This document shows positions 3,447 to 32,740 of a stretch of 64,000 nt of DNA, piece after piece. Position 1 is the first letter of the stretch; every line of letters starts with the position of its first letter. The notes under the pieces were generated by a model. It saw only the letters and a list, made by a program, of their open reading frames with translations. It had not been told where the DNA came from and did not search any database. The position numbers were made by a program, and so were the translations under genes. The DNA comes from a virus (lineage: Duplodnaviria; Heunggongvirae; Uroviricota; Caudoviricetes): the IMG/VR virus record IMGVR_UViG_643348549_000020, one strand, 5' to 3'.

Positions 3447-6400
3447 TCAGCTAATCGTGATGCCTGCAGTGGCTTTCTTCATCACCACAACCAGCAAATC
3501 GCTGATACTTGCTGTGGGATACCAGTTATTTACCAGCCATGCTGACACCGAAAACTCCAGTGTCATGTGACCGTGACCGGCAGGCATATCAATAACACCA
3601 CTGTAAATCAGCGTATTATCCAGCGCGGTACGGTTATAAATTTCAGCACCGTTTTTCCGCACTATCAGACGGCATGAGGAGTAAATATCAGTATGCTCTT
3701 TCTCATGTTTAGCGCCGCTGAATGCCACCGCCGGAATAACAATCTGCCGGTCAAACGGCTGATCGTCATAAACCCTGACGGTAATGGTTCCTGATGGCCA
3801 CCGCTCCGGTGCACGGGAGTCCCGGGGGAAAGCTTTGCCCACTGTTTTAACGAGATCGCCTTCAATCTGGTTCGCGGACAATTTTCCCAGAACCCGACAG
3901 TTCTCGTTAATCGTGACGTTGTTGAGCGTCCCGGAGTTCGCATTCACGTTACCGCTGATATCGGCATTTTTCGCCGTCAGCCGCCCGTCCGGTGTCAGGG
4001 AAAATGCCGGAGGATTACCGCCGCTGGTAATGGTGGGAGCCGTCAGATATTTCAGGAACACTTCATTCATAAATATCTGATCGCCCTGACCAACAAACAT
4101 CGGCTTTGTGTTGCCATTCGCAGGATTAATCATCGCAATCCTGTCTGCCGCCAGCAGCACCTGACTCTGCATTCCTGCTGGCGTATTCTCAATACCGGCA
4201 CCGATACCCGCAATATAAAGGCGTCCGTCCTGCATCTGCTGCAGTTTCACGGCCCACATGCTGTTCAGGTTATTATTTGTATCAACCTGAACTTTCTGTA
4301 TCTGCTGGATTGCCGCACTCTGATTTTCCAGTTTTTTATTGACGGTCTGCGTGATTTCATTGCTGACATTCGTAATGGACGTCCTGATTTCAGCCAGGTC
4401 CGGCGCAAGCTGACCGTTATCAATCTGCGTCCACAGCTCCTGGGCCAGATGTGTTTTCCCGATTTCTCCTTTGAAAAAATCCAGGTAACCTTCCGCATCA
4501 TCGCTCGCCCGACCGACAGCCTCCACGAATGCCGATTTGCCAACAGTATTCACACTGCGGATATAAAAATAATAATCATGGCCCGGTTTGATATTGATAC
4601 TGGCAGCTATCCAGTACAGCGCCGAGCCAAGATAGCGGGCTGCGGTTTCAACCTGCCTGATATCCGCAATCCGCTTTTCCGAAAACCAGAACTCAAACTG
4701 TACCGTCGGGTCATAAACGGCAAGATGCGGCGTGGCGGTTATCTGAAAATAGCCCGGCGTCAGCTCAATCCGCGACGGTGCTGCCGGTGCGGCAATCCGG
4801 AAGGTGGTGGTGGCAGGTTCACCCTGCTGGCCATAGCTGTTTATCGCCCGCACCGTCAGGGTGTATTCCCCGAGCGGCAGGCCGCTGAAACGGTGCTCCG
4901 TGTCTGCGGTGATGGCGGTGGTCACCAGTCTGGCATCCGTTCCCTTACCACTGGTCAGGCGCAGACTGAAGCGCACGCCCTTCACCACCCGCGGCGTGTC
5001 CCATTTCGCCTGTGCCAGATACTGACCGTCAGCCGCGCTCACCTCCACCGTCAGGTGCTGCACAGCCGGCGGGATGACGCTGTTCAGCGAACCGGACAGT
5101 GGCTCAAAGCTGGCCCCGTTATCCACAATGGCTTCTTTTTCCGGTACGTGCTGCACTGCCGTGATGGCAAAGGTGCCGTCCGTGTTTTCCCGGATGGAGA
5201 CACAGCGGAACAGGCGACGACGCAGTGACGGCAGGGAGAGTCCCCATACACCGTATGTCTCCACGCCATCCGGCAGGGTGCTGACCTGTATCCGGTCCGG
5301 CGCGGGGTGTGCAGTGATGGCCACGCTCACCGGCTTACCGCTGCCGTTAATCAGGTTCACCGTCGGTGTACCTGTCTCCGGCAGGGTCACCTCACGGTCC
5401 AGTGTCAGGGTGCGGCTGGCGGCATCGATGGACAGGACACGTCCGCCGGTCATGGTCCCGGCATAGTCGTTATCACAGATTTCAATAATGTCACCGGGTG
5501 TGTGACGCAGCCCCTGAGACCCGAGCGTGAAATCCACCGTCTGCGTTTCCAGCAGTCCGGTCTTTATCACCCACAGCCCGGCACGGTGGGCCTGACCGCG
5601 ACTGGTGCAGCCGAACGCATCCATCTTCAGCAGGTTGCGCCCGTAGCGCAGTATGGCTTCCGGGTCTTCCACCAGTTCCGTGGAGGTCTGCCAGCCGTTC
5701 TGCGGGTCGGTGTAATTCACCTCCACCGCCGTGTGGCGGTCCTTCAGGGCGCTGAAGCTGTAGCGAAACCCCACGCCGTTATCATCCACCACCACATCAC
5801 TGCTGGTGTAGGGCCACACCACATCTGACGGACGGTCCTGCACAAACGTCAGCGTCTGCCCGTTCCATACCGGCATACAGCGCATCGCCGAGCAGAAATC
5901 ACTGAGAACGTCCCACGCCTTACGCTGTTGTGACAGGTACGCATTGAAAGTCATCCGCGGCTCTGTGCCCCCGAAACCATCCGGGACCGTCTGGTCGCAG
6001 TACTGCGCAATGGCATACAGCGCCCACTTGTCCACATCCGCCGCCCCCAGGCGTTTTCCCATTCCGTAGCGCGGGTGGGTCAGCATGTCCCACAGGCACC
6101 AGGCAGGGTTGTTGCTGTATGCCGGTTTCAGGCTGCCGTCCCAGATGCCGCTGTACGTGCGTTTTTCCGGGTCATAGTTTGACGGCACCTGGATGATGCG
6201 ACCGCGGATATGGTAGTTCACCGTCATCTGCTGACCGCCAAACTGCTCCGCATCCACCTGCAGCCCCACAATGGCCGTGTTCGGGTAGCACTGTTTCACA
6301 TCGATGATTTCGGTGTATGACGACCACAGCGTTCTGTTCTGCAGCTGGTCCGTGGTGCTGTCCGCCGTCTCCCTGACCATCCGGATGTTAAAGGGCCGGG

Positions 6401-25083: not shown

Positions 25084-27030
25084 TCATGCCGCAGTGTCTG
25101 TGCTGTTCACTTCCACCGCAATGCTGTCTATCAGTACCGGGTAAGTCGCACCTCTGGTAATGTCTGTCACATGCAGTTTATCCGCCGCAAAGGCACTGAC
25201 CGGTGACTGCGTCAGCGTGAACGGTGTACCATCCTGACCATCAATAACCGGCGTCACCTGAAGGCTGTTATTCCCGGCAAAGCGGAAAGCCAGCGCATGC
25301 CATTCGTTATCAAATGCGCCAAAGCTTCCCAGTTTCAGGTTGTTTGTCGCCACTTTCGCATTGTGGTACATCACATTCAGGTCTTTTGCATCTGTCTGGA
25401 TGTAGAACGCTGCCAGCAGGTTATTCCCCCCGTCTCCGGTCAGGGCAACGCCCTGTGGCAGTGAAGATACCGGCCAGTAAAACGCCATAACATACTGGTT
25501 CGCAGCCAGCGCTCCCGAAACCTTAAAGCGGCAGCGAATCTGCCCCCCTTTCTGTAACAGAGCCGCACCGTTGCCCGCGGCGTACTCCAGCACCCAGCTG
25601 CTTTTACCGGCTTCCTTGGTCAGCTTCACTGCCTTACCTCCGGTTCCCTCCGCATCGCTGACCACTTCTGCCCTGCCGCCACTGGCTGACCATCCCTGTA
25701 CTTTCAGGCTTCCCTCTGACTCGCTGGCAAGGTAAGAGAGCAGTGTTGTGATGCCTGTGGCTTCTGCACCGGAAGGCGATGACGGGCGCACCTCTGATAC
25801 TGTCGATGATGCCCCCGCGTTTAGCGCCACTCTTCCCGCATGGCGCAAAATCGCCGTTGCCAGACGGTCGGAAATAATCCCACGGCGTGCCCAGGCGCTG
25901 AAATGGCTCGCCCTGTCCTGTGACGTCCAGGTGGCTGAGCTGTCACGCCATTTCGAACCGTAATATCCGATACCCGGAATGTCCGGGTCTTCTTCCGGTT
26001 TGTTCGTCGGCACATTCACCCCGTTCTCATCCGTCATGAACGGTACGAAATGGATATTTTTTTCCGTTTTGTTTTTATAGCTGCCGTACACCGTCTGGTA
26101 CGTGGATTCGTTCTTCTGCTTCCAGAAATACGTCGTATCTCCACATATCCAGGGAACACCGCCAGCAGAGCCACCGACGCACTGACCTGCCATATCCGCC
26201 AGGTCTGCACGGAATTTATCAACCAGCGCACCAAACTGTGCTGCGTGATTTGCCGGCGTACCGCCAAAATCAAATTCCCCCTGCATCCACACCACGGCAA
26301 ACAGCACATTTTTCGGATTCTTCTTCAGTGCTGCTTTTGTTCGACCGATAAGGTCCTTATACAGCGGCTTGTCCACACCCCAGCGGGTTGAATTCTCCGA
26401 GGCACCACTCGCGTCACTGTATGTGCCATCAGCTCCGGTGGTGAACGCTGAACCACCACGACAGCACGGAACCAGCAGAATGCCCGCATTCGCCGGTATA
26501 AACGGCAGCAATTTTTTGGCGATATGCAGCCCCTGCCCCACGGTTCCGTACTGCCCCTTTGACAGGTCCGCTTTCGGATGGTTAAGGCGGCTCATGTCCT
26601 GCACATCATGCAGACAATGGTCCGCCGGAATGATGTCGTTATATTTACAGGCGACACCGCCCGGTGTCACCGTACTGCGACGCGCCAGCTGCTTAATGCG
26701 CGGGTCCGGACGGTCATATGTCTCCGGCAGCGGAAGACCTTCACCATACGACATGCCGTTTGACTGCCCTGCCAGAACCACAACAAAGTAATACCCGGGG
26801 TCGCTGGTGGCGCTGATTACTGCACCTTCTCCACCTGTCGGCTTCACCACAACAGGTGTGCTCACATCACCTTCTGCGACAATCGCCTGAATAAGTGCTG
26901 CGCCATCATCCGTATACGAAGAAAACGGCCCACCATATGGTTGCCATCCTTCACGAATTTTTTGCGCAAGTGCATCAGCAAGGTCTGACGGCGACGCCGC
27001 CCTGACAACATCATAATGTTTAAATGTCAT
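25084..27030 (-). CDS. nanS: Prophage-encoded sialate O-acetylesterase (NanS-p type, 648 aa)
   Basis: SGNH/SASA-type motif VVLAGQSNGMSYGEG; size and position (between Q and S) match NanS-p of EHEC prophages. Confidence 0.7.
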   Translation of the reverse strand: MTFKHYDVVRAASPSDLADALAQKIREGWQPYGGPFSSYTDDGAALIQAIVAEGDVSTPVVVKPTGGEGAVISATSDPGYYFVVVLAGQSNGMSYGEGLPLPETYDRPDPRIKQLARRSTVTPGGVACKYNDIIPADHCLHDVQDMSRLNHPKADLSKGQYGTVGQGLHIAKKLLPFIPANAGILLVPCCRGGSAFTTGADGTYSDASGASENSTRWGVDKPLYKDLIGRTKAALKKNPKNVLFAVVWMQGEFDFGGTPANHAAQFGALVDKFRADLADMAGQCVGGSAGGVPWICGDTTYFWKQKNESTYQTVYGSYKNKTEKNIHFVPFMTDENGVNVPTNKPEEDPDIPGIGYYGSKWRDSSATWTSQDRASHFSAWARRGIISDRLATAILRHAGRVALNAGASSTVSEVRPSSPSGAEATGITTLLSYLASESEGSLKVQGWSASGGRAEVVSDAEGTGGKAVKLTKEAGKSSWVLEYAAGNGAALLQKGGQIRCRFKVSGALAANQYVMAFYWPVSSLPQGVALTGDGGNNLLAAFYIQTDAKDLNVMYHNAKVATNNLKLGSFGAFDNEWHALAFRFAGNNSLQVTPVIDGQDGTPFTLTQSPVSAFAADKLHVTDITRGATYPVLIDSIAVEVNSTDTAA

Positions 27031-27214
27031 TATTCCTCCCGGCCGGGATAGTGTATTAAATCAGATATGGAGTGGGCTGTAGTCCGGAAGCCTGAATGAC
27101 ACACGGGGACTACAGCCCAAGAAATGAAAAAAGGCCACGCAGTTGCGCAGCCTGATAAACCCTGGTTAAAATCCACACGATAACAACACAACAATATCAG
27201 TATCTCATGCTATT

Positions 27215-27240
27215 GCCCGAACCCATTCGGGCATTTTTTT
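27215..27240 (+). terminator. Intrinsic terminator (hairpin gcccgaacccattcgggc plus T8), plus-strand orientation
   Basis: Seen directly in sequence. Confidence 0.5.
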
Positions 27241-27246
27241 ACCCAT

Positions 27247-27270
27247 AAAAAAGCCCCTCCGGAGAGGGGC
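27247..27270 (-). terminator. Intrinsic terminator (hairpin gcccctctccggaggggc plus T6) in late-transcript orientation
   Basis: Seen directly; forms a back-to-back terminator pair with 27215-27240. Confidence 0.5.
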
Positions 27271-27508
27271 ATGTTTGCATGCACATTCTTTTTCTTGCAT
27301 GGTGCCGGGTGCCTCCCGGTGAATTCAGTACCAGCACCTGAATCCGCGATTACCCCATATACCTGGTTGCTGATTGCCCCTCCGCACAGGGGGATTCACC
27401 ATGCCAGTTTCTTTTAACAAACTCCCCGCAAACCAGACAACAGTCAACCGCCTGAATTGTGAGACATTTAAAAAAAGGCCCGCAAAAGCGAGCCAGGGAA
27501 AATAAGTG

Positions 27509-27584
27509 TGGCGCGTTGTACTGGATTCGAACCAGCGACCTGGCGATTATGCGTCGCTCGCTCTCACCACTGAGCTAAAGGGCC
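27509..27584 (-). tRNA. tRNA-like sequence, 76 nt, anticodon CAU (Ile2/Met type body), probably a degenerate or chimeric pseudo-tRNA
   Basis: D-arm GCTCAGTGGTGAGAGC and T-loop GGTTCGAATCC are intact, but the acceptor strands GGCCCTT and ACAACGC cannot pair, position 33 is G, and there is an A27-C43 mismatch. Confidence 0.5.
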
Positions 27585-27624
27585 GGGCGCAGGATAATAA
27601 CGGTACGTAACTAATCCTGCAATA

Positions 27625-28683
27625 TCATCCGTTCTGACTGACTAAATCCTGTACTTCCCTGACCGTCTGCTCAAAACGTTCAGTCTCCAGCTCAACGCCA
27701 GTTGCACGACGCCCCAGCGCCATCGCGGCTTTGACTGTCGAACCCGACCCCATGAAGAAATCTGCAACCAGGTCACCCGGACGACTGCTCGCACTGATTA
27801 TCTGCTGCAGCATTTCTGCCGGTTTTTCGCACGGATGTTTCCCGGGATAGTACTGCACCGGTTTATGCGTCCACACATCCGTGTACGGCACCTGCGCCGT
27901 CACGCCAAAATACCGCCGCAGATGTTTATATTCACTCTGCAGTTCCGCATACTGCCGGTTCAGTGAAGTATACGTCTCCAGCAGCTGGTGGTGGGGCTTT
28001 TCCAGTTCACCGCGCTGATGCTTCTCTTCTGCCACCCGGGCAAACAGCGCCTGTAATTTCAGATAATCGCTTTCGTTCGGTAGCTGCCACTGACTGGCAC
28101 TGAACCAGTGCGACACCATGTTTTTCTTTCCTGTGGCATCCACTATCTGTTTTGCCGTTATCCCCAGGGCAGCACGCGCATCACGAAAGTAAGAAATCAG
28201 CGGAGCCATCACATGCTGTTTCAGTGCCCTGCCCTTCGCCTCATACCCGGCATCTTTCGGACGATACGGCCCCTGATAATGTTCCGCGAACAGAATGCGC
28301 TCTGTGGCGGGGAAATACGCCCTCAGGCTTTCCTTGTTGCACCCGTTCCAGCGTCCGGACGGCTTCGCCCAGATAATATGGTTCAGCACACTGAAGCGTT
28401 CACGCATCATGATTTCAATGTCAGATGCCAGGCGATGGCCACAGAACAGGTAAAGACTTCCGGCAGGTTTCAGCACCCGCCAGAACTGCGCCAGACACTG
28501 GTCCAGCCATTTCAGGTAATCCTCATCACCCGTCCACTGGTTATCCCAGCCCTCAGGCTTCACTTTAAAGTACGGCGGGTCCGTGACTATCAGGTCAACA
28601 GAATTTTCGGGTAACGACCGGATAAATTCCAGGCAGTCGGCGTTGATTAACTCACAACTGGATATTTTTACAGTATTAAACAT
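27625..28683 (-). CDS. DNA methyltransferase, beta-class amino-MTase (N6-adenine or N4-cytosine), no cognate nuclease seen
   Basis: DPPY motif near the N-terminus and FFMGSGST AdoMet motif near the C-terminus. Confidence 0.8.
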   Translation of the reverse strand: MFNTVKISSCELINADCLEFIRSLPENSVDLIVTDPPYFKVKPEGWDNQWTGDEDYLKWLDQCLAQFWRVLKPAGSLYLFCGHRLASDIEIMMRERFSVLNHIIWAKPSGRWNGCNKESLRAYFPATERILFAEHYQGPYRPKDAGYEAKGRALKQHVMAPLISYFRDARAALGITAKQIVDATGKKNMVSHWFSASQWQLPNESDYLKLQALFARVAEEKHQRGELEKPHHQLLETYTSLNRQYAELQSEYKHLRRYFGVTAQVPYTDVWTHKPVQYYPGKHPCEKPAEMLQQIISASSRPGDLVADFFMGSGSTVKAAMALGRRATGVELETERFEQTVREVQDLVSQNG

Positions 28684-29257: not shown

Positions 29258-30079
29258 CTATCTGGTCACCTTTTTCAGTTGTTGTTCTGCCCATGCTTCT
29301 TCAATATCAAACTGCACCACCAGCGTATCGTAAAAACGTTTAACTGTTTTTTTCCATGTATCAAGAGATATGGCATCGGTTACATTACATATGGCATTAA
29401 ATGCCTCCGTTGAAGGTAATCTTTCATAGCCACGCCCACCACAACGCTGACAGTTTCTGAAAACCGGCACACCCTGTTTTTCCGACTCTTCACGATGAAT
29501 GGCAACACCGCGCCCACGACAATCTTTACAGGCAGTGGATACCTCTCCCTTCCCTCCACACTCCGGACAGGCAACTTTTACCACCTCCCTGACTTTTTTC
29601 CATTCCTCCCAGTAAGACGGATACACGCCTTTTGTGCACTTTGCCCACACTGGCGGCTTACCATCCGGATACTGGATCTTGTTTGTAAAAACCTCGCTTT
29701 CAATAAATTTTTTTCCGTGACAGCAGGGGCACTGTTTTTTGCTCGCCGCGCTACGGGCATAATCTTCAAACGCATACGAAGCCATAATACGCATCACTGC
29801 CGGTTTTATTTCTGCCGGGAGTTTTCTTAACGCCGCCACGCGATCACACCGACTGAGTGCATATTCTGTCAGCAATTCTGTTGCCCGCTCTCTGTCATTC
29901 ATACTAATGCCCATTTTCCCAAGGAACGCAGAAAACCCCATCTCAGCCCGATTCTGTGTCATGCCCTGCGCGGCCATCACATCAGTGATACTCAGCGCAT
30001 CTTTTGACGTTGAGGCCGATGCATCGGTCAGGCCAGGGGATTTTGGGGAGTAGTATTTCGGTAAATCTTCCAGTTTCAT
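29258..30079 (-). CDS. Q: Putative late antiterminator Q (273 aa, multiple CxxC zinc-ribbon motifs)
   Basis: Position between rusA and the late region; CPCCHGKK, CPECGGKG, CKDCRGRG, CQRCGGRG motifs. Confidence 0.5.
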   Translation of the reverse strand: MKLEDLPKYYSPKSPGLTDASASTSKDALSITDVMAAQGMTQNRAEMGFSAFLGKMGISMNDRERATELLTEYALSRCDRVAALRKLPAEIKPAVMRIMASYAFEDYARSAASKKQCPCCHGKKFIESEVFTNKIQYPDGKPPVWAKCTKGVYPSYWEEWKKVREVVKVACPECGGKGEVSTACKDCRGRGVAIHREESEKQGVPVFRNCQRCGGRGYERLPSTEAFNAICNVTDAISLDTWKKTVKRFYDTLVVQFDIEEAWAEQQLKKVTR

Positions 30080-32339: not shown

Positions 32340-32495
32340 TTACTCCTCAGGTTCGTAAGCTGTGAAGACAGCGACCTCCGTCTGGCCGGTTCGGATTCGT
32401 ACCTCGCAGAGGTCTTTCCTCGTTACCAGTGCCGTCACTATGACGGTTAAACAGATGACGATCAGGGCGATTAGCATCGCCTTTTGCTGCTTCAT
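32340..32495 (-). CDS. hok: Hok-family type I toxin (51 aa); overlapping mok-type leader frame extends to 32552
   Basis: MKQQKAMLIALIVICLTVIVTALVTRKDLCEVRIRTGQTEVAVFTAYEPEE corresponds to HokD/RelF as I recall it. Confidence 0.8.
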   Translation of the reverse strand: MKQQKAMLIALIVICLTVIVTALVTRKDLCEVRIRTGQTEVAVFTAYEPEE

Positions 32496-32740
32496 AGCCT
32501 GCTTCTCCTTGCCTTTCGGCACGTAAGAGGCTAACCTACGTGTGTAGAGCATAGATATGGCCTCAGATTAATGTTAAGCGTCTTGCCGGACGCGTAATGT
32601 TAACTGGGGCTTTTCTCTATCTGCCGTTGGTGTTCATGCCCGAGGCAGATAGCCTCAAGCACCCGCAGCAATTCTACTTAACTCTCGCTTTACCGCAAAC
32701 CGTTTTTACCCGATATGGGAATTCCCATATCGTAATGAAT

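Follow-up and report, generated by a model that had tools for sequence, protein, structure and literature searches.

A hybrid ileZ/argO tRNA remnant and two known sRNA genes at the toxin site of a non-Stx lambdoid prophage

In the Stx phage 933W, the toxin genes follow a cluster of three tRNA genes, ileZ-argN-argO, which also occurs in other Stx and lambdoid phages and which Plunkett et al. are said to have described in 1999 along with the phage genome sequence. In the prophage DNA analyzed here, the corresponding interval holds a single 76-nt tRNA-like element, which raises the question of what this element is and whether the toxin site behind it is really empty. The window, that is, the whole 64,000-nt stretch of IMG/VR record IMGVR_UViG_643348549_000020, includes the moron site, where late-region cargo is carried, of a lambdoid, non-Stx prophage of enterohaemorrhagic Escherichia coli (EHEC) O157:H7. 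The locus is ordered as Q (29258–30079), a methylase gene, the tRNA remnant, an STnc100-family sRNA gene on the minus strand, the AgvB gene on the plus strand, and nanS-p. Pfam domains bear out the two protein-coding neighbors, a methyltransferase and nanS, named in an earlier note on this DNA. The methyltransferase gene (27625–28683, minus strand, 352 aa) matches N6_N4_Mtase at 150.9 bits and is labeled 'DNA-methyltransferase' in RefSeq; it is complete here, whereas 933W keeps a remnant of approximately 110 nt. The nanS-p-type sialate O-acetylesterase gene (25084–27030, minus strand, 648 aa) combines DUF1737, the SASA sialate-esterase domain, and DUF6645, which is the NanS-p architecture, and its homologs in phage records are annotated as yjhS or 9-O-acetyl-N-acetylneuraminic acid deacetylase. 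With a probability of approximately 0.9, we consider the element to be the dead remnant of a 174-bp deletion that joined the first and third genes of the tRNA cluster, at a non-Stx moron site that carries known sRNAs.

The element lies on the minus strand at 27509–27584 and was characterized by alignment, BLAST, ARAGORN, and Rfam. Three arms of its cloverleaf are kept (D, anticodon, and T), its anticodon is CAT (27551–27549), and the 3′ GCCA is encoded. All four pairs of the D stem and all five of the T stem can form, one of the latter being a G-T pair. Only two of the seven acceptor pairs are possible, G1-C72 and T7-A66, with GGCCCTT as the 5′ strand and ACAACGC as the 3′ strand. The anticodon loop, CGCATAA, carries G33 (window position 27552), where intact ileZ copies have T33. 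These observations agree with the earlier reading of a tRNA-Ile2(CAU)-like body with an unpaired acceptor stem and G33. The same reading listed a mismatch in the anticodon stem among the traits of a decayed or chimeric tRNA. The mismatch, A27.C43, is indeed present and leaves four of five pairs; however, the intact ileZ genes of Nil3, PhiR49_2, and 933W share it, so it is native to ileZ and not a trace of decay.

ARAGORN returned no tRNA call in the whole window, nor in the local sequence with the threshold lowered to 95%, 90%, and 80%, so a confident full tRNA call was not obtained; the program calls all three cluster tRNAs in Nil3 and PhiR49_2. At 70%, its sole call was a nonsensical 90-nt tRNA, which was discarded. 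Additionally, folding the element with its leader and trailer yielded no alternative acceptor helix. The Rfam tRNA model matches the element at 37.3 bits against a family threshold of 29 (E = 4e-6 locally and 3e-4 over the whole window), and the similarity to tRNA, which the earlier note had made a premise, is thus far beyond chance. This match is local, spanning model positions 7–64 of 71 without the acceptor stem, and lies 35 bits below that of intact ileZ, which scores 72.5 bits over positions 1–71.

To place the origin of the element, we compared the window with Nil3 and PhiR49_2, two stx-negative phages with an intact ileZ-argN-argO cluster that served as alignment references; all three tRNA genes are also intact in 933W. 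Against both references, the two flanks are identical around one clean gap of 174 columns. Nucleotides 1–49 of the element (27584–27536) derive from ileZ and differ from the intact gene at position 33 only, while nucleotides 57–76 (27528–27509) derive from argO. Between them lies the crossover zone CTGGTTC (27535–27529), common to the T-arms of ileZ and argO, with an ileZ-specific G on its 5′ side and the argO-specific TTCGAAT, CCAGT, and ACAACGCGCCA on its 3′ side. BLAST against 933W gives the same picture, with segments 27735–27521 and 27540–27471 overlapping by 20 nt inside the T-arm. The gap and its crossover confirm the earlier suggestion of a chimeric tRNA formed by collapse of an ileZ-argN-argO cluster, and the origin of the hybrid, its breakpoints, and its failure in tRNA detection are established at the sequence level. 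Flank divergence from Nil3 is approximately 1%, and the single U33G change falls within this background, so it is by itself no proof of relaxed constraint.

As we reconstruct it, the ancestral module comprised the promoter pT, ileZ (CAU), argN (UCG), argO (UCU), and a terminator. The T-arms of ileZ and argO are nearly identical, and one deletion of 174 bp, crossing over within their common CTGGTTC, took the 3′ end of ileZ, the entire argN, and three-quarters of argO from its 5′ side. The product is one 76-nt hybrid, also bearing U33G, whose ileZ-derived 5′ acceptor strand cannot pair with the argO-derived 3′ strand. In the parental cluster, argN may already have been in decay, as it is in Sakai Sp10; the deleted length would then differ slightly, and the conclusion would stand. 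Unequal recombination between tandem tRNA genes yields hybrid or lost genes, for example in the tandem tyrT genes of E. coli. The present case resembles that process in its short shared segments, its adjacent genes in direct orientation, and the loss of the intervening DNA. In contrast, the parents here differ in identity (Ile2 and Arg), so the hybrid would be non-functional and no working copy would result.

The signals around the hybrid are preserved. The putative tRNA promoter pT (27594–27622, minus strand; TTGCAG, a 17-nt spacer, and TATTAT) directly follows the methyltransferase stop codon and is assigned solely through identity to the 933W annotation, as all 29 of its 29 bases equal the 'pT; putative tRNA promoter' of the 933W locus (L005, 2583–2611); a simple sigma-70 scan of 26900–27800 called no promoter, pT included. 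Downstream, a terminator scan found the intrinsic terminator of the tRNA cluster (27477–27494, minus strand), located in the argO trailer and followed by a T-run, which is collinear with the 933W terminator between argO and stx (L005, 2886–2909). Because pT and the terminator are intact, the hybrid is probably still transcribed. The 933W cluster (GenBank AF125520) is alike in its place, after Q/PR′ and ahead of the stx site, in pT, in the homologous terminator, and in an argO that matches the 3′ 20 nt and trailer of the hybrid. The window differs in having one hybrid gene for three, with 174 bp missing, no acceptor stem, and G33. As there is no stack of acceptor and T arms, the transcript should undergo neither RNase P maturation nor aminoacylation; on structure rules and the tRNA-finder failure, we infer that the hybrid is a dead tRNA gene.

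The identical 76-mer, always with G33, occurs in approximately 159 of the 5,426 complete E. coli genomes searched; the carriers include serotypes O157:H7, O111, O145, and O121, and strains TW14359 and TR01 are among them. A T33 version was sought in these 5,426 genomes and not found; its best full-length matches, at 98.7%, were G33 hybrids. None of 50,697 phage records has the hybrid, and all 280 hits there are intact ileZ. Since all copies found are identical, their variation says nothing for or against selection. RefSeq (PGAP) labels the hybrid "tRNA-Met", a 71-nt call that begins 5 nt short at the 5′ end and carries no pseudogene flag. In the literature collection searched, nothing relevant turned up on ileZ/argN/argO or on tRNA genes upstream of stx.

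The RefSeq label implies a functional if unusual tRNA, either tRNA-Met or tRNA-Ile2, and its recurrence in many genomes, the three intact arms with their encoded GCCA, the preserved promoter and terminator, and an Rfam score above threshold are in its favor. However, a molecule with two of seven acceptor pairs, no substitute helix from its flanks, and G in place of the near-universal U33 hardly fits this function. ARAGORN rejects it even at 80%, the Rfam match is local and far below that of intact ileZ, and the PGAP call itself is truncated; we therefore hold a working tRNA to be extremely unlikely. The hybrid might instead be kept as a tRNA-like regulatory RNA, either a decoy for tRNA-processing or tRNA-modifying enzymes or an Hfq-bound sponge built on the terminator hairpin and U-tail. 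The intact pT and terminator, the single allele in approximately 159 genomes of several serotypes, and an adjoining locus rich in Hfq-dependent sRNAs are consistent with such a role. However, with z = −0.99 at 125 nt and −0.97 at 76 nt, the predicted transcript shows no excess of structure over its shuffles, and recent common descent explains the identity of the copies. Moreover, argO and ileZ go unmentioned in the supplementary files of Tree et al. 2014 (PMC4104026), including Table S2 of orphan Hfq-binding sites, and Sakai, on which that study was based, lacks the hybrid allele. Retention as a regulatory RNA thus appears quite improbable, and we find it very doubtful indeed that the hybrid persists as a stable tRNA-like RNA of approximately 115–125 nt with a new role, for example as a decoy for tRNA-maturing or tRNA-modifying enzymes such as TilS or RNase P, or as an Hfq-associated sponge; if true, this could explain one identical allele across approximately 159 EHEC genomes of several serotypes.

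A different origin was also weighed. Partial tRNA copies often flank integrated elements, and assemblers can collapse tandem repeats, so the element might be an integration scar, with an att duplication of the 3′ end of a host tRNA, or a collapsed assembly. However, both halves of the element and both flanks are collinear with the internal phage tRNA cluster, from the methylase and pT to the terminator and STnc100, and the site is deep inside the late operon, at a distance from any att site. Recurrence of this 76-mer in approximately 159 independently finished genomes excludes an artifact. On collinearity and recurrence, both readings were rejected, and their probability is practically nil. 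Deletion within the tRNA cluster, leaving a dead hybrid, is the reading that we retain.

We then compared the toxin site itself with that of 933W. Local alignments pair window 27520–27471 with 933W positions 2861–2909 and window 27466–27434 with positions 4245–4277. The stx2AB cassette of 933W (1,335 bp; L005, 2910–4244) consequently falls between 27471 and 27466, two positions 4 nt apart, and this minus-strand junction (27466–27471) is the unoccupied cargo point. The window has no counterpart of the 933W cassette, so its tRNA terminator and STnc100-type sRNA enclose no stxAB operon, and the alignment with Nil3 and PhiR49_2 runs collinearly through the junction. The toxin site therefore holds no protein cargo, and the earlier statement that Stx phages carry their toxin genes exactly here is borne out by 933W. 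Its description of an empty cargo site stands for the stx point and fails for the site as a whole, where two known sRNA genes are present. Terminator-like sites number six, against 1.1 expected in shuffles.

The sRNA on the late strand belongs to the STnc100 family (EcOnc27/EcOnc06/PasD type; 27241–27433, minus strand) and has its own terminator at 27270–27253. It is of a Hfq-binding type, matches the full Rfam model RF02076 (positions 1–206) at 144.5 bits, where the gathering score is 47, and is identical to the Sakai Sp10 and Sp17 copies in 180 of 195–196 aligned columns. Its subtype is that of Sp10 and Sp17, which is linked to AgvB, while its 5′ end, upstream of approximately 27422, is of the Nil3 type. 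A coordinate shift, and not a direct match, points to EcOnc06 as its identity. The family, with the prophage sRNAs EcOnc27 (sRNA103), EcOnc06, and PasD, also occurs downstream of stx2B in 933W, whose copy scores 207.7 bits, and the late-strand place of the window gene between the cargo site and the anti-sRNA is the one seen in 933W, Sp10, and Sp17.

The convergent partner is the anti-sRNA AgvB, a GcvB sponge (27178–27239, plus strand), with a terminator at 27214–27233. It matches the full model RF02702 (positions 1–62) at 96.5 bits, against a gathering score of 56, and all 62 of its nucleotides equal both the consensus and AgvB1 of Sakai prophage Sp10. The criteria for AgvB in the work of Tree et al. 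(PMC4104026) are a 5′ variable region with CACAACA, the target consensus for GcvB R1, and a conserved 3′ region of approximately 42 nt with a terminator; in the window, the GcvB-target motif CACAACA lies at AgvB nucleotides 10–16, and the terminator follows. According to that study, which described convergent sRNA pairs at this moron site, the 5′ region with CACAACA pairs with GcvB, a core sRNA, at its R1 seed and lifts the repression that GcvB exerts on targets such as dppA. Because GcvB antagonism in vivo was shown there for the identical Sakai sequence, the window copy would be predicted to antagonize GcvB as well.

This convergent pair downstream of PR′ has the same layout in Sp10 and Sp17, where AgvB1 and AgvB2 (EcOnc01a/b) share the motif, the terminator, the convergent partner, and the downstream nanS-p. 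The difference lies in the upstream cargo: ileZ4, argN in decayed form, argO4, and a TerB-like gene in Sp10; a membrane-protein gene without tRNAs in Sp17; and, in the window, the hybrid tRNA with no gene as cargo. In Stx phages, the equivalent pair (STnc100/EcOnc27 and AsxR) follows stx, so the pair is no mark of an emptied site. The back-to-back terminators reported earlier do exist, at 27214–27233 (plus) and 27270–27253 (minus), along with two further minus-strand ones at 27494–27477 and 27153–27132. However, the claim that the site holds only these and a stem-loop does not survive, as the two are the 3′ ends of the convergent sRNA genes. The locus is thus an ordinary one, with two already described sRNAs at its toxin site.

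Two hairpins remain upstream of nanS-p. A late-strand terminator-like hairpin (27132–27153, minus strand) with nine pairs followed by TTTTTT lies between the AgvB promoter region and the nanS-p leader, and its core CTGCGCAACTGCG and T-run are kept in Stx1 and Stx2 phages. The stem-loop noted before nanS is present as an inverted repeat (27073–27119, minus strand) whose 13-bp arms (27073–27085 and 27107–27119) are 100% complementary around a 21-nt loop; it ends 43 nt upstream of the nanS-p ATG and appears in the minimum-free-energy fold. Comparison with Stx1 and Stx2 phages shows conserved arms and varying loops, with one T.T mismatch in Stx2 phages, and no compensatory changes were found in the arms among the phages compared. 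Judged by this conservation, both hairpins are features of the nanS-p leader that Stx1 and Stx2 phages share.

The main value of these results is for annotation, and the known picture of these loci is unchanged. The "tRNA-Met" entries in approximately 159 finished E. coli genomes should read ileZ/argO hybrid pseudogene. If the hybrid is dead, as we conclude, the prophage no longer provides three rare-codon tRNAs of its own, namely, those for AUA and two Arg isoacceptors. This loss fits a gradual decay of non-Stx lambdoid prophages, of which the argN decay in Sakai Sp10 is a separate case. In published work, AgvB improves the growth of O157:H7 in bovine rectal mucus. Since the toxin site still encodes AgvB, a stx-negative prophage can still add fitness through its sRNAs.

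The late genes of the prophage lie on the minus strand, where a Q antiterminator ORF (29258..30079, -), an N6/N4 DNA methyltransferase ORF (27625..28683, -) and an ORF of NanS-p (sialate O-acetylesterase) architecture (25084..27030, -; DUF1737, SASA sialate-esterase and DUF6645 domains) follow one another. The stretch flagged in the earlier note, 27031..27624, separates the methylase from nanS-p. Among public sequences, the 20 kb around this locus come closest to lambdoid prophages of E. coli O157:H7, and the best match is strain TR01 (NZ_CP033605.1; 99.8%). In TR01, the intergenic stretch has a perfect match near 1,754,140, and the best 20-kb match lies elsewhere, at 2,909,881-2,929,881. Judging from these separate sites, some strains may hold two prophages with the same module. 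The methylase ORF is absent from the Stx2 phage 933W and from Nil3, despite about 110 nt homologous (94%) to its 3' end directly upstream of the putative tRNA promoter pT (window 27625-27735, -; L005 2470-2580 in 933W and L001 1390-1500 in Nil3). PhiR49_2 carries an annotated methylase fragment of 279 nt. These remnants suggest that the methylase is ancestral and was cut short in 933W, Nil3 and PhiR49_2. Additionally, Rfam places a sok antitoxin RNA at 32490-32664 (-; 111.7 bits), in agreement with the annotation of TW14359, where a type I toxin gene, hokD, occupies the corresponding position (L004 1130-1285), and, elsewhere in the prophage, a DicF sRNA at 39395-39446 (+; 76.7 bits).

The 76-nt tRNA-like element lies at 27584..27509 (-) and reads GGCCCTTTAGCTCAGTGGTGAGAGCGAGCGACGCATAATCGCCAGGTCGCTGGTTCGAATCCAGTACAACGCGCCA. 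In cloverleaf register, the D stem (4/4 pairs) and T stem (5/5) are complete, while only two of the seven acceptor-stem positions pair, as the earlier note had described. The anticodon loop, CGCATAA, likewise contains the G at position 33 reported there, with CAT as the anticodon. Four of the five anticodon-stem positions pair. The mismatch, A27.C43, had been read as a sign of decay; it is present, but intact ileZ genes carry it too, and therefore it does not reflect decay. As to the proposed check with ARAGORN, no tRNA was called anywhere in the window, and none at the element even in a local run with thresholds relaxed to 80%. The Rfam tRNA model matched only positions 7-64 of 71 (37.3 bits) and left out the acceptor stem, compared with 72.5 bits across the whole model for intact ileZ genes.

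To trace the origin of the element, we compared the region with Nil3 and PhiR49_2, stx-negative lambdoid phages that match it with 170-175 bp extra and have three tRNA genes each, an intact ileZ-argN-argO cluster. The alignment has one 174-column gap, and to its left and right the window runs collinear with both phages. At the left edge, ileZ sequence is followed through ...CCAGGTCG; at the right edge, the match picks up again in the T-arm of argO, CTGGTTCGAATCCAGTACAACGCGCCA, and runs on into the trailer and terminator of argO. Directly 5' of CTGGTTC, the window has the G specific to ileZ (A in argO), and directly 3' of it the G specific to argO (ileZ reads TTCAAAT there). These diagnostic bases place the crossover in CTGGTTC itself (7 nt), which is part of a roughly 22-nt T-arm stretch nearly common to ileZ and argO. 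BLAST against 933W agrees with the alignment, giving an ileZ-side and an argO-side segment that have 20 nt of the T-arm in common. Judged from these comparisons, the element is a hybrid that combines the 5' acceptor strand of ileZ with the 3' acceptor strand of argO, and this dual derivation explains the unpaired acceptor stem. Besides the argO-derived part, the element departs from intact ileZ only at position 33, where it has G in place of T. The single gap and the two-segment BLAST match thus bear out the collapse of an ileZ-argN-argO cluster suggested in the earlier note. We found no description of the hybrid in the literature covered, which was incomplete; the pseudogene is a new yet unremarkable case of recombination between tandem tRNA genes.

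Among 5,426 complete E. coli genomes, the exact 76-mer was the best match at at least 99% identity in 159 records. Rows sampled across the 159 were all full-length and single-piece, from O157:H7, O145 and unserotyped strains, and the hybrid also occurs in O111 and O121 strains. Its repeated occurrence in genomes that were finished independently rules out an assembly artefact. When T33 was put back into the query, none of the E. coli genomes gave a perfect full-length match, which shows that G33 is present in every hybrid found. The hybrid occurs in none of the 280 phage records bearing an ileZ-like gene and is absent from Sakai, whose best match is the intact ileZ2 of Sp5. An ileZ variant with a TTCGAAT-type T-loop was seen in 28 records; in E. 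coli O139:H1 W13-16 (H60 / L006), an ileZ-like gene with such a T-loop belongs to another phage tRNA cluster (Ile-Thr-Gly). In many EHEC genomes, RefSeq/PGAP lists the hybrid as a "tRNA-Met" of 71 nt, without marking it as a pseudogene. This call (window 27509-27579, -; L004 6046-6116 in TW14359) starts 5 nt inside the element, and the parental gene is annotated as ileZ (tRNA-Ile, AUA) in 933W and Sakai. Such recurrent misannotation is the sole practical consequence of the hybrid.

The 29-nt "pT; putative tRNA promoter" of 933W is identical in the window (27622..27594), and the tRNA-cluster terminator (27494-27477) is intact, which makes transcription into an RNA of about 115-125 nt plausible. 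A stable tRNA-like regulatory RNA made from this intact promoter is nevertheless very improbable: the predicted transcript is no more structured than shuffled sequence, and its predicted fold contains no replacement acceptor helix formed with the flanks. Recognition by RNase P and aminoacylation both rely on the acceptor/T-arm stack; we therefore infer that the hybrid is a dead tRNA gene.

The 1,335-bp stx2AB cassette of 933W (L005 2910-4244) maps between window 27471 and 27466, directly after the tRNA terminator, and in Nil3 and PhiR49_2 the sequence runs through this point collinearly with the window. The earlier note had called the toxin site empty apart from back-to-back terminators and a stem-loop. 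No protein gene indeed stands at the stx point, but the remaining intergenic region holds the sRNA genes STnc100 (27433..27241, -; Rfam, 144.5 bits against a threshold of 47) and AgvB, an anti-sRNA against GcvB (27178..27239, +; 96.5 bits against 56; 62/62 identical to the consensus). The terminators at 27270-27253 (-) and 27214-27233 (+) are real, but they are the 3' ends of these convergent genes. A 48-aa ORF antisense to STnc100 (27271-27417, +) appears in RefSeq as a pseudogene, an incomplete "hypothetical protein" (L004 6211-6354), and as a hypothetical protein in some phage records; it is probably a spurious call over the sRNA gene. Among prophages, a near-identical STnc100/AgvB/nanS-p block follows differing cargo, namely a TerB-like gene with a plasmid-stabilisation/regulator pair in phage PPyecE_EH1910 (L003 888-2486) and a TerB-like gene alone in Sakai Sp10 (L012 21128-21559). 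This shows that the cargo site has a variable edge, at about window 27422.

933W has the same arrangement, with STnc100 and AsxR, downstream of stx2B, and the Sakai prophages Sp10 and Sp17 have it with STnc100 and AgvB. The window AgvB is identical to the Sp10 copy (62/62), and its nt 10-16 form the CACAACA motif. That pairs of convergent sRNAs lie at the moron insertion site, 3' of PR', was already reported, with AgvB1 in Sp10 and AgvB2 in Sp17 (Tree et al. 2014). AgvB pairs with the GcvB R1 seed, which relieves DppA repression, and it raises competitiveness in bovine terminal rectal mucus (Tree et al. 2014). With coordinates shifted to account for the differing genome versions, the STnc100-type partner in Sp17 and Sp10 is probably EcOnc06, of about 177 nt and listed as "5' ECs1961" (Tree et al. 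2014, Table S2). Its counterpart in Sp5 is EcOnc27 (sRNA103), and the STnc100 family has recently been tied to PasD sRNAs. Collectively, the sRNA content of the locus is already published.

The stem-loop before nanS is also as the earlier note described: the hairpin at 27073-27119 has 13-bp perfect arms and is part of the fold predicted for the nanS leader at minimum free energy. In Stx1 phages, the hairpin is nearly identical to that of the window; in Stx2 phages, the arms are retained with one T.T mismatch and the loop is entirely different. No compensatory changes were seen in the arms across the Stx1 and Stx2 phages compared. The terminator at 27153-27132 (-) is likewise conserved in both. 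The hairpin and this terminator are leader features common to nanS-p genes and are uninformative on cargo loss; one guess at their role is in processing or stability of the leader, or in termination ahead of Q-modified read-through.

Other prophages, too, show decay of this tRNA cluster. In Sakai Sp10, the cluster consists of ileZ4, argN and argO4, and the argN between the other two (L012 20782-20881) has a scrambled central part and no match by ARAGORN or Rfam, an independent decay. Sakai Sp17 has zero tRNAs. Phage-tRNA loss is therefore common in resident O157 prophages, and the ileZ-argO hybrid is one further route to it.
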